A stretch of DNA of 64,000 nt from an uncultured candidatus Porisulfidus sp. (GCA_965116025.1 OZ220480.1:576001-640000), one strand, 5' to 3'; positions 43,112 to 46,600 are shown, counted from the first letter of the stretch. The notes: generated by a model not told the origin, from the sequence alone. Made by a program: numbers and translations.

Positions 43112-43697
43112 TAGCCTAATTCGCCAAGCGAGATCGCGCCCCGCCAGGGGTATACCCCCCTCCCTCTCGCCGACAAAAAAAAAGTGTAGCGGTAAAGCGC
43201 ACTTTTCCCGGCTAGACACGTTTTGCCCGTGAAGCCCGCAGGGTTCCCTAAACTCGATAGATTTCCCGCGATCTCGCGCCCGCCTCGCGCCTCGCGCCCT
43301 CATTCACCCGCCCCGAACGCGCAAGCCCCCCACGCGCGATTTACGCGCCTTCCTCGATGCCCGAAATTGACCGAAAAGTGCAACTTTTCCGCGCTCGCGC
43401 CCGCCTCGCGTAGCTTCTCACCACCGCTCGGTAGCGGCTTGCCGCCGACCCGTATTGACGGATGCCATTGGCCGCCTAGCGATCGTTTCAGCACAGCGCC
43501 TAGCGCGCGGCTTTGGATAATTCCCTTCGCTTAAAGGCGAAGCGAGGAATTATCGCGCCGCTCGCTTAGGCGCGTAAGCGGCGTTGACCCGCCCGCAACG
43601 CGGGCGTATCTGTCCTATACCCTAATAGCGTGAAGCGATTCGGCAAGCCGGACTTCACTGGGCGCTACTCACGGCGGGCGCTTCGCCCTTTTCAGCC

Positions 43698-46600
43698 CTA
43701 TGTCATTCCAACGGCGGGCCTAATTTCCGCTTTCGCAGGCGCTTCGCGGCCTCTCATAAGGCGGCTTGGCCGGGCTTTCTCATACACCTCGGTGAACTCA
43801 GTGAAACTCCAACGTCCGAATTTTTCGAGCGCGTTCACACCAGGCACCCAATACGTATCCATGGTCGCCTTCTTCGCCTTGGCATCCTCTCCCCGATAGC
43901 CCTTGATTTCTACGACCAAGTGCAGAAGGTCATCAGGACCCCGTCCGTCATCCACCAGAACGATGAAATCTGGAATGTAGATTCGCGTCTTCGCTCCATA
44001 CCGATAGGGCACCTTGAAATCCAATCCATGATTCTTGATGTAGGACCGCACCTTTGAATGGGCCTCCGCGACTCGACAGAATTCGGCTTCCCAACTACTA
44101 TCGCATACGACCCAGTTAACGTGGCTTTGATCAGAGGCGGTCTTCCATAACGTTTTCTTTGATGTCGTGAAATTGACGTTGGTTGTAGATCCAACTGGGT
44201 TGTAAGGATCCAAGACCGCTTTGACTGGACGCGCGCCCACATTCTGGGCGACTATACCTTGCGTGATACGCTCGCAAGCCATGTCCGCGAGTGATGGATA
44301 CATCAGCTGCGCCATAGAGGTTCCACCTCTGCAGACGAGGTGATGATCCAGCCAGTGACGCGTGATTCGCTTGAGCTGACCGAACAAATAAACTTTTGGC
44401 TCTTCGTTCGAGTCATGCCATTTCGTTTCCAGTAGTCGCTTTGTCAGGTGATACAGCAAGGTAGTGCGACGCAAACCGCCCGTGTCGACCAGTCTCAGAT
44501 CCACTCCCTCACCGATTATGCCCTCGTTACGGATCTTAGTCGGCCCCACAAGATCGGGAGTTAACTCCAGCGTCGAATCTTCACTGAACGTTGCATGCAG
44601 AAAATCTTCTGGTAGATCGACTCGGTAGCCCGCGACACGTGGGAAACGGATTTCGCAAGCATCCCGCTCCGGCGTGATCGCCTTGACATGAACGGTCTTG
44701 CGAGGCGGTTGCGGTGGCGCGACCACGGGTTTCGCGGTAAAGTCAAAAGGAATTCCGAACACGTCCGCATACTCCACGGGAAGCATGCCCTCATCGTTCA
44801 ACTCATAGGATTGCCGGCGGAGCGCCCTGCCTACCGCTTGCTCGCACAAAAGTTGGGTGCCAAAAGCGCGAACACCGAGAACATGGGTAACGGTGTTGGC
44901 ATCCCATCCTTCTGTCAACATCGAAACAGAGACCACGCAACGGATCGTTTCGCCCAATTGTCCTTTTTTGCCAACAGTGTTCAGAACTTCGCGCAACAGG
45001 TCCTGATCGGCAATATTATCGCCGTCACGAATGTCGCCAGTGCGCCGAATGCGGTCGCGACGAAAGCGCTCAATTTCATCTACCGCGATCTTGTGAAAAC
45101 TTGGATCCAAGGCATCTCCAGATTCAATTTGCTCGCTATCGATCAAGAGAGTGCGCGGTCGCCCTAATGGAACACCATGGTCATCAAAATTTCGGAACAG
45201 GTCAAGATGGCCGTTGACTAGGGTTTGCGAACCATCCTGTTGCTTTTTATGGAATCCCGCGATGTAGTCGTAGATCAACTTTGAGGTCGATGTGTTGTTG
45301 CAGATCACGATAAAACAGGGAGGAACATCTATGCCAGCGTCGCACCAAAAGTCAAAGGTTTTTTTGTAGTCGCCATAGATAGCATCCAATGCTGTCTGCA
45401 ACATCACCGGAAGATGGCGAGGATCCTGATCGATTCTTTGGCGCCTTTTTTTTGGCATATCTGCACCGATATGCTCCCATAGATTGCGGTATTTCGGCAT
45501 GTCGCCATCAGCGATATTGTCGGCCACTGGCACTCGCGGCAATTTGACGATCCCGCACTCAATCGCGTCCATCAGCGAGAAGTCGCTGACAGTCCAAGGA
45601 AACAGCGTCCCTTCCGCATAACCCGATCCACTCAGGAAAAAAGGTGTCGCGGACAAGTCGATGGCGCGCGGGCCCACGGATGCCGGACGGTTCTCCGGCA
45701 TCCCTTTGTTGAGCGTGCGCGTAACCGCCTCCAATCCAGAAACCCAGAGCCTCGCGGCCTCTCGATTCTTTTTTGCCTCCTCGCGCGAATCACCCCGTAG
45801 CTGATCCCTTTCAACATCTGGCTTCTCCCGATAGCAGTGGTGCGCCTCGTCATTCAATATGAGCACGTTCCTCATGCCCATGAGCTTGGGCATCACCCGC
45901 TGGAGCATCTGCCCTTCCGTTTCTGTGGAACACAGATCCGGGCCGCGGCCCTGGAGAAACGCCCGACCGCCTTTCGATAAGTTCATCGTGTCTCGGAGCT
46001 TGAAGGCGTGATAGTTGGTGATCACGATCTGCGCGCGGTTCAAGTCATTCAACATGTCTCCGGGAACGAGCTCTCGACTTTGATAGTAGCTGTCCGGGTC
46101 ATTCGGCTGAAGAACTCGGAGACGGTCCTTGATAGTAATGCCCGGAGTGACGACGAGAAATCCCCGGGTAAAACGATGGCTGGACGGGTGGCGAACCGCG
46201 TTGATCGTCTGCCACGCGATCAGCATAGCCATGACCGTGGTCTTGCCCGCGCCAGTCGCCAGTTTCAGCGCCAGCCTTTCCAGACCCGGGTTGGCTTGCT
46301 CGTTCACGCCACGTATGTGATCAAGAAACTGTTTTCCGGTTTTATCAGAGGGCGCGACTTCGGTCAGCCAAATCACCGTCTCGACGGCCTCAAGCTGACA
46401 AAAGAATGGGCGGTAATGGCTGAATTTATGGTGATGCCAGTGATCCAGCAGATGCTCCGTCTCCGGTGTTACTCGAGATTTCAACAGGTTTCGATTTGAC
46501 CTCCATCTGTCTACAGCGCCACGAACGTTATTGATGGCATCCTCCAGTTCGTATTCTTGGCCATCGATTTGTCGCGTTGGCTCATCTACAGCCAAATTTC

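Follow-up and report, generated by a model that had tools for sequence, protein, structure and literature searches.

The locus described here raises the question of how a mobile element that ends in a long structured tract, and whose first hairpin carries a copy of the sequence just outside its junction, came to lie in a type III restriction gene. The initial annotation of the window (the whole stretch of 64,000 nucleotides that was analysed, from whose first letter positions are counted) had proposed an element-encoded guide for target selection, and the sequences that it quoted are all present where it had placed them. The reading that we favour, tentatively and with a little less than even confidence, is that of a head-only satellite moved by an enzyme from outside, the tract being a cis-acting, single-stranded module and the element also having a free circular form. 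Head-only satellites are already known; what is new here is the combination of undescribed structured ends with the lack of an integrase.

Boundaries and insertion site of the element

The element and the parts of the gene that it splits are the following:
32746..43778, minus strand: whole element (frame restoration and homologues; empty site in run X3; contig break at 43778 in run X1)
43779..46850, minus strand: 5' part of res, type III restriction gene (PF04851), whose frame now runs 27 codons into the element, to a stop at 43698
32686..32745, minus strand: displaced tail of res, its last 19 codons and stop, directly upstream of mod
43778..43784, minus strand: junction word TATGAG plus A (flank and shared base), from the sequence

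The element is 11,033 bp long (32746–43778, minus strand) and is inserted near the 3' end of res, in the same orientation as that gene. Its ends are precise and the insertion is free of target duplication, with one A assignable to either side. The right end that had been proposed in the initial annotation proved to be real, since the junction 43778|43779 has three supports. Firstly, excision of 32746–43778 in silico (by script) regains the res frame with a 19-residue tail starting IESEF, where intact relatives read ..DVYEIQSDF and ..DVWEMQDEF at the junction position. Secondly, an empty site is found in sequencing run X3, where a single contig connects res (43780) and mod (32654), which are 65 nt apart. 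Finally, a deep element contig of run X1 stops exactly at 43778. On the res strand, the flank ends in TATGAG (43784–43779), the element starts with AAAGCCCGG, and TATGAGA occurs again at 43758–43752.

A dif-like or integron-type target was considered and rejected, the recombinases being only XerC/XerD-like: the host genome (G000) encodes just two tyrosine recombinases, with best matches to XerC and XerD. To our knowledge, the target site is also unlike the dif or integron consensus. The adjacent type III mod gene (28731–32675) is interrupted by an intact-looking IS630 (30316–31449). Because mod is split in this way, the restriction system is probably inactive, though the res frame is near-complete. 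The 3' part of mod contains a run of about 22 G residues (29516–29540), a possible phase-variation tract.

Gene content and relatives

The following genes and signals were identified in the element, from the right end inwards:
43082..43111, minus strand: sigma70-like promoter TTGACA-18-TAGGAT for terL (a similar site precedes a decayed second terL, G000 ~806130)
41442..43007, minus strand: terL, terminase large subunit (profile and family matches)
41122..41445, minus strand: HNH packaging-type endonuclease, 107 aa
39759..41234, minus strand: HK97-type major capsid protein
38725..39759, minus strand: portal protein
38362..38700, minus strand: 112-aa protein of no known family
34641..38231, minus strand: four tandem small genes with RTX calcium-binding repeats, the cargo (two scanned, PF00353 the sole match)
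34055..34351, minus strand: 98-aa helix-turn-helix protein, resembling the N-terminus of IS630 transposases
33193..33909, minus strand: protein with a ParB-like N-terminal domain, of a phage family

No tail, holin or lysis gene was recognised in the element with Pfam and PHROG. Neither collection gave a match to an integrase, primase, small terminase subunit (terS), protease or head-tail adaptor/connector in the element ORFs, a search that small divergent ORFs could escape. The host genome as a whole gave no match to a reverse transcriptase, Y1 transposase, large serine recombinase or TnpB; the control for the Y1 search was positive in 6 of 14 genomes, and that for TnpB was also positive. Searches for RRXRR and IS91 gave no match even in control genomes and carry no weight. 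Eight matches to the IS110 family (PF01548) were found in G000, none of them in the window. The ends of the resident IS110/IS1111 elements are unrelated to those of the element described here, and use of these ends by the element was therefore rejected. The right non-coding ends of seven IS1111-type copies (L194–L199 and L201) vary in two short windows, as expected for bridge-RNA guide loops.

The relatives of the terL gene belong to a large family of tail-less islands, mostly head-only and integrase-bearing. One common integrase cluster is present at 51 of 79 terL-related genome loci, these 79 being the best of 265 confirmed stretches, and the protease is a separate gene in the maps of the relatives. 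Tail-less islands of the type terL-HNH-capsid-protease-portal (loci L008–L166) occur in many phyla, mostly with a tyrosine integrase, and several genomes have two or three copies. Many of the genomes with terL relatives appear to be those of sponge symbionts. A terL 99% identical to that of the element was found on a 23,925-nt contig, and the protein was found in none of 15 genomes of the same genus. A relative of the ParB-like protein (P0106, on a 23,744-nt contig) is 58% identical over 56% of the query and is fused to a PF05869 domain.

Within G000, a second terL (806333–808708; L192:6334–8709) is 44% identical, interrupted by IS630 and preceded by a similar promoter; it adjoins an RTX-repeat gene and a paralogue of the left tract. 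A near-identical remnant with the ParB, helix-turn-helix, RTX and 112-aa genes lies at 880217–885468 (L191:4218–9469) and is cut by insertion sequences, one of which is an IS1380. Short remnants of the cargo region are found beside RTX-repeat genes at 412100–412580, 519150–519700 and 1357870–1358900. The position of such cargo-like remnants next to RTX-repeat genes suggests that this satellite family has spread RTX cargo through the genome. Outside the element, decayed end tracts and packaging or cargo remnants are thus present at several sites of G000.

The non-coding ends and their fold

Both ends of the element are non-coding:
43749..43762, minus strand: first hairpin GCCUU-AUGA-GAGGC, holding the 7-nt copy of the junction word at 43758–43752 (predicted fold)
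43633..43777, minus strand: predicted 5' domain, the first 16 nt pairing with 43649–43633 (single-sequence prediction)
43405..43655, minus strand: structured core, a multi-helix arm and the long 43516–43554 hairpin (paralogue at G000 857293–857551)
43450..43461, minus strand: small hairpin with the loop region UCAAUAC (43458–43452), the loop differing in the paralogue
43265..43410, plus strand: short GC-rich direct repeats of the CTCGCGCC family, also at 32868–32884
32746..33015, minus strand: left-end non-coding tract (IS-truncated paralogues at G000 759826–760065 and 802238–802346)

The right tract had been described as a stack of hairpins, and this holds in the comparison of two copies more clearly than for the single sequence. 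Folded alone, the 411-nt tract differs modestly from shuffled sequences (z −1.44 on the res strand, −2.84 on the opposite strand). The same genome contains a diverged paralogue of the core (nhmmer 857303–857538, E 5.3e-10), which covers 43405–43655 and is without the first hairpin; no second copy with both the hairpin and a known flank was found. The consensus of the two copies reaches −74 kcal/mol on the res strand, and none of 100 column-shuffled and none of 100 re-mutated alignments was as good (z −5.8 and −4.5), as against −51 kcal/mol on the opposite strand (z −2.2 and −1.3). The number of double changes taken alone is not above the controls, as it was reached by 10 of 100 and 37 of 100. 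The structure as named has 54 pairs with 10 double changes, and all 13 one-sided changes are G.U-compatible, the structure itself being derived from these same two sequences. With two sequences as its basis, the comparison shows a fold that is conserved on the res-sense strand. Neither end tract has a match in Rfam at E-values up to 5–10, and the end tract represents a previously undescribed conserved fold.

The differences between the two core copies have no codon periodicity, and a coding origin of either tract was ruled out for lack of such periodicity. RNase P-like and tetraloop-receptor readings were rejected because the relevant words are not kept in the paralogue, and derivation of the left tract from the neighbouring transposase was rejected on comparison. 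In both core copies (43472–43506 in the window) a segment further downstream resembles the 5' strand of the main arm, and the 3' strand of that arm has two possible partners; the presence of two partners hints that the core may be a conformational switch. For the first 145 nt, folding predicts a closed domain whose start coincides with the junction.

The tract probably acts as RNA rather than as DNA, a preference of moderate strength that is based on the G.U-type variation, a C(GAAA)G loop and a possible AGUA/GAA internal loop. The latter, no more than a possibility, would join 43669 with 43745 in a hand-built fold 6 kcal/mol above the minimum. The DNA reading is kept alive by the words GCGAAGC, GCGAAAGC and GCGAAGC, within 43748–43740, 43736–43729 and 43686–43680. 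A cluster of three such words in the first 120 nt was met in 1 of 5000 random windows and is one of two in the genome; a CCGAAGG hairpin is present in the paralogue of the core. Mini-hairpins of this kind are very stable in DNA, where they occur at single-strand priming sites, and far weaker in RNA (PMC13037366, in part).

The consensus fold of the left tract is weakly supported (z about −2.1). This tract terminates in a 12-bp palindrome (32746–32757), and an internal segment (33004–32990) resembles the terminus; its part 32997–32990 complements the first 8 nt of the element, which was noticed post hoc. A hairpin GGGCT-AAT-AGCCC (32769–32781) lies 23 nt inside the left end, and its centre recalls what we take to be nick sites of the Rep_trans type. 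One 17-mer of the direct repeats occurs genome-wide only at 32868 and 43283. In the paralogues, the left and right end tracts are never found together.

Searches for homologues of the ends returned little. Right-end DNA gave a single 36-nt match (E 2e-4) in 60 relatives, matches of just 25–31 nt in 4 of 50 genomes with a related terL, and none in phages. Left-end DNA gave none in the 60 relatives, short matches in 4 of the 50 genomes and none in plasmids. The 50 genomes are those of the 63 first listed, and a set of 40 symbiont genomes was drawn from them. A model of the core (R1) found nothing in 60 relatives, these 40 symbiont genomes, 52 genomes of the order or 150 of the class, the sets of relatives, order and class overlapping; its best scores were 17.5 bits among 93 terL loci and 15 bits among 80 ParB-like loci. 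The left-end model (R2) gave three matches of 16–18 bits in the 40 genomes and nothing notable in the terL or ParB-like loci. Pattern scans returned 3, 0, 3 and 0 matches in viral contigs and one in metagenomes, all judged to be due to chance from their flanks or model scores. The sequencing runs listed as containing the sequence included none of RNA. No description of such a satellite was found in the literature covered, the main texts of mostly open-access papers.

Possible modes of insertion and comparison with known systems

We propose that an integrase-less, head-only phage satellite may have the tract as its 5' end. Joined to each other, the left and right tracts would make up a non-coding region of about 650 nt, continuous in a free, multi-copy circle and split by integration. 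This joined region may act in single-stranded form, more likely as RNA and possibly as folded DNA, as a cis signal for replication and mobility. An enzyme of a helper element, not found in G000, would then insert the circle into res through a single break-and-join at the junction. The 7-nt target copy would be incidental, or would at most aid target capture.

The sequencing runs bear on the circular form; they consist of assembled contigs, and what follows holds among the contigs listed. Run X2 covers the element about as deeply as the flanks and bridges both junctions. In run X1 two flank contigs, at depths of 27.6 and 28.4, match the window without a single difference, while at least six element contigs, at depths of 465–492, are 0.3–3% different from it (e.g. 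35 letters in 3167). Run X1 therefore holds a sister element, diverged by about 1%, that is about 17-fold deeper than the flanks, a depth summed over all organisms and not a copy number. The deep contig ends at 43778 and the flank contig begins at 43749. Since the two overlap by 30 nt, the assembly graph appears to branch at 43778, so that the deep sister would have the same last 30 nt and hairpin with another continuation than this flank. Two states of the sister would account for this: a free circle or concatemer, or integration elsewhere, at a site not ending in TATGAG. On the left, the X1 contigs break at 32760, which lies 14 nt inward of the predicted end, and a simple circle would require an extra variant there. 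No end-to-end circle junction was seen among the contig joints listed.

That the first hairpin is a guide for the target is doubtful, and the evidence is divided. The identity to which the initial annotation had drawn attention does exist: TATGAG at 43753–43758 equals 43779–43784 on the res strand, a match that the next A extends to 7 nt and that lies within 27 nt of the end. A 7-nt copy of the flank no more than 40 nt from the end arose in 0.8% of 20,000 random trials when counted as a single test, and in 4.4% once the count was widened to either end, either flank and complement as well as identity; the word itself occurs only 67 times on both strands of the 2 Mb. The match between hairpin and flank is therefore suggestive, not decisive. 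The copied word does lie in a hairpin, as had been claimed, but it is not its loop: the stem of the predicted hairpin consists of 5 pairs, of which a U.G pair closes the loop (stem pair probability 0.81–0.97), the first and last bases of TATGAG are mostly paired, and AUGA alone is unpaired. This is no internal loop of the bridge type. The second putative guide lies 300 nt away, where the UCAAUAC loop complements the last 2 nt of the element and the first 5 nt of the downstream flank at the left junction. This complementarity was noticed post hoc and is not significant alone, being within chance for a tract of this length (TCAAT has a frequency of 6e-4 per position); a right-flank complement of at least 6 nt adjoining the junction is absent from both end tracts. 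The polarity, with identity to the left and complementarity to the right, agrees with that of bridge RNAs (PMC11208160, in part). Against a guide also stand the unrelated ends of the resident IS110/IS1111 elements and the absence from G000 of matches to a reverse transcriptase, Y1 transposase, large serine recombinase or TnpB. The X1 sister, with the same last 30 nt and another flank, can be read in two ways: as a free circle it would mean that the word need not be copied from this site, which favours a pre-existing guide, whereas its integration at a non-matching site would refute a guide.

A wider form of this idea, which we regard as unlikely, is a class of recombinase-less satellites in which the two ends, once joined, make up a large structured RNA or single-stranded DNA; this molecule would recognise the target through base-pairing and direct scarless insertion of 11 kb by a host or helper enzyme. 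It is similarly unlikely that, in such a class, the first hairpin would serve through its identity to the left flank and the second loop perhaps through complementarity to the right flank. If the hairpin did pick the target, this would be a nucleic-acid-guided, scarless 11-kb insertion unrelated to IS110, IS200/IS605 or introns, relevant to the biology of mobile elements and as a programmable insertion tool. Even without a guide, there would be an integrase-less head-only satellite that integrates cleanly and has a conserved end fold, and its modes of replication and insertion are testable.

There is a small chance that the ends are cos-like packaging termini, or the origin, of a decayed capsid-forming satellite, and that a single event of illegitimate joining brought in a linear or circular copy of it. 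The terL gene is the first after the end, as in the virion maps of cos phages, which start with terL, and direct repeats are present at both ends. It is just as improbable that the fold would then have no part in integration and act as a leader, terminator or priming signal, the last a role to which the three GCGAAGC/GCGAAAGC words in the first 120 nt would be suited, as such mini-hairpins are found at priming sites (PMC13037366, in part). A cluster of these words within 1.5 kb upstream of terL was, however, found at none of 124 terL-related loci, and the RNA models gave nothing convincing in the 93 loci mentioned above. Moreover, a double-stranded binding site would not keep a 250-nt fold on one strand.

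Very improbable, finally, is self-splicing by a giant intron of the group I, group II or IStron-like type, with the tract as its 5' half, the left end as its 3' half and the res mRNA restored: the orientation as in res, the precise insertion, the structured tracts at both ends and the possible pairing of the first 8 nt with 32997–32990 would suit it, but the termini fit the rules of neither group I (exon U and terminal G) nor group II (GUGYG and AY) in either register, the tracts have no Rfam match (E up to 5–10), G000 has no group II domain V (E up to 5) and no reverse transcriptase, and the models do not match genomes rich in group II introns.

The analogies to IS110 bridge RNAs, IS200/IS605 ends and group II introns drawn in the initial annotation fit poorly, as the match is one of identity and not of complementarity and as recombinase, Y1 transposase and reverse transcriptase are lacking; like the initial annotation, the Rfam search recognised no group I or II core. 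Pairing of the EBS type needs complementarity. The same-strand identity thus excludes pairing of the group II EBS type and of the IS200/IS605 type, and fits only an R-loop guide like the left target guide (LTG) of bridge RNAs. With IS110/IS1111 elements the element shares scarless insertion at a very short core, long non-coding ends that would meet in a circular form, and a segment with the same sequence as the left target (PMC11208160, in part). It differs from them in having no DEDD recombinase, at most one shared base instead of a core dinucleotide, and a putative guide in a 4-nt terminal loop instead of an internal loop facing the right target guide (RTG). In bridge RNAs the LTG is in an internal loop opposite the RTG, and the IS110 recombinase is required (same source, in part).

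IS200/IS605 elements resemble it in their strand-specific structure and a subterminal hairpin near the cut, but their guide is a complementary tetranucleotide 5' of the hairpin (PMC8266576, in part), whereas here the match is identical and inside the hairpin, with no Y1 transposase or TnpB in G000. The single-strand initiation sites of the phage G4 origin and of RSF1010 (ssiA) have the GCGAAAGC/GCGAAGC words clustered at the 5' end in common with it (PMC13037366, in part); the tract is far longer than these, and the changes in its core are of the G.U type seen in RNAs. Among intron-related structures, group II features are absent from G000 (no domain V at E up to 5, no reverse transcriptase), and Rfam gave no match to a HEARO-like scaffold (the omega-RNA of IscB/IsrB) or to a group I core, which could escape Rfam when split by 10 kb. 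CALINs and MITEs are known to borrow an integrase or transposase in trans, and none of the present kind is named in the part of PMC11389934 used here.

The closest likeness in gene content is to the capsid-forming satellites known as cf-PICIs, in size (about 11 kb) and in the set of terL, HNH endonuclease, HK97-type capsid and portal genes with no tail, holin or lysis gene recognised (PMC10085698, in part). In contrast to these, no integrase, AlpA/MerR-type regulator, primase, terS, separate protease or head-tail genes were detected in the element; it has no duplication of an att core, and it carries long structured non-coding ends, a ParB-like gene and RTX cargo. The element works like a capsid-forming satellite, but it falls outside the cf-PICIs, in which membership requires at least 9 of 11 core genes (PMC10085698, in part).
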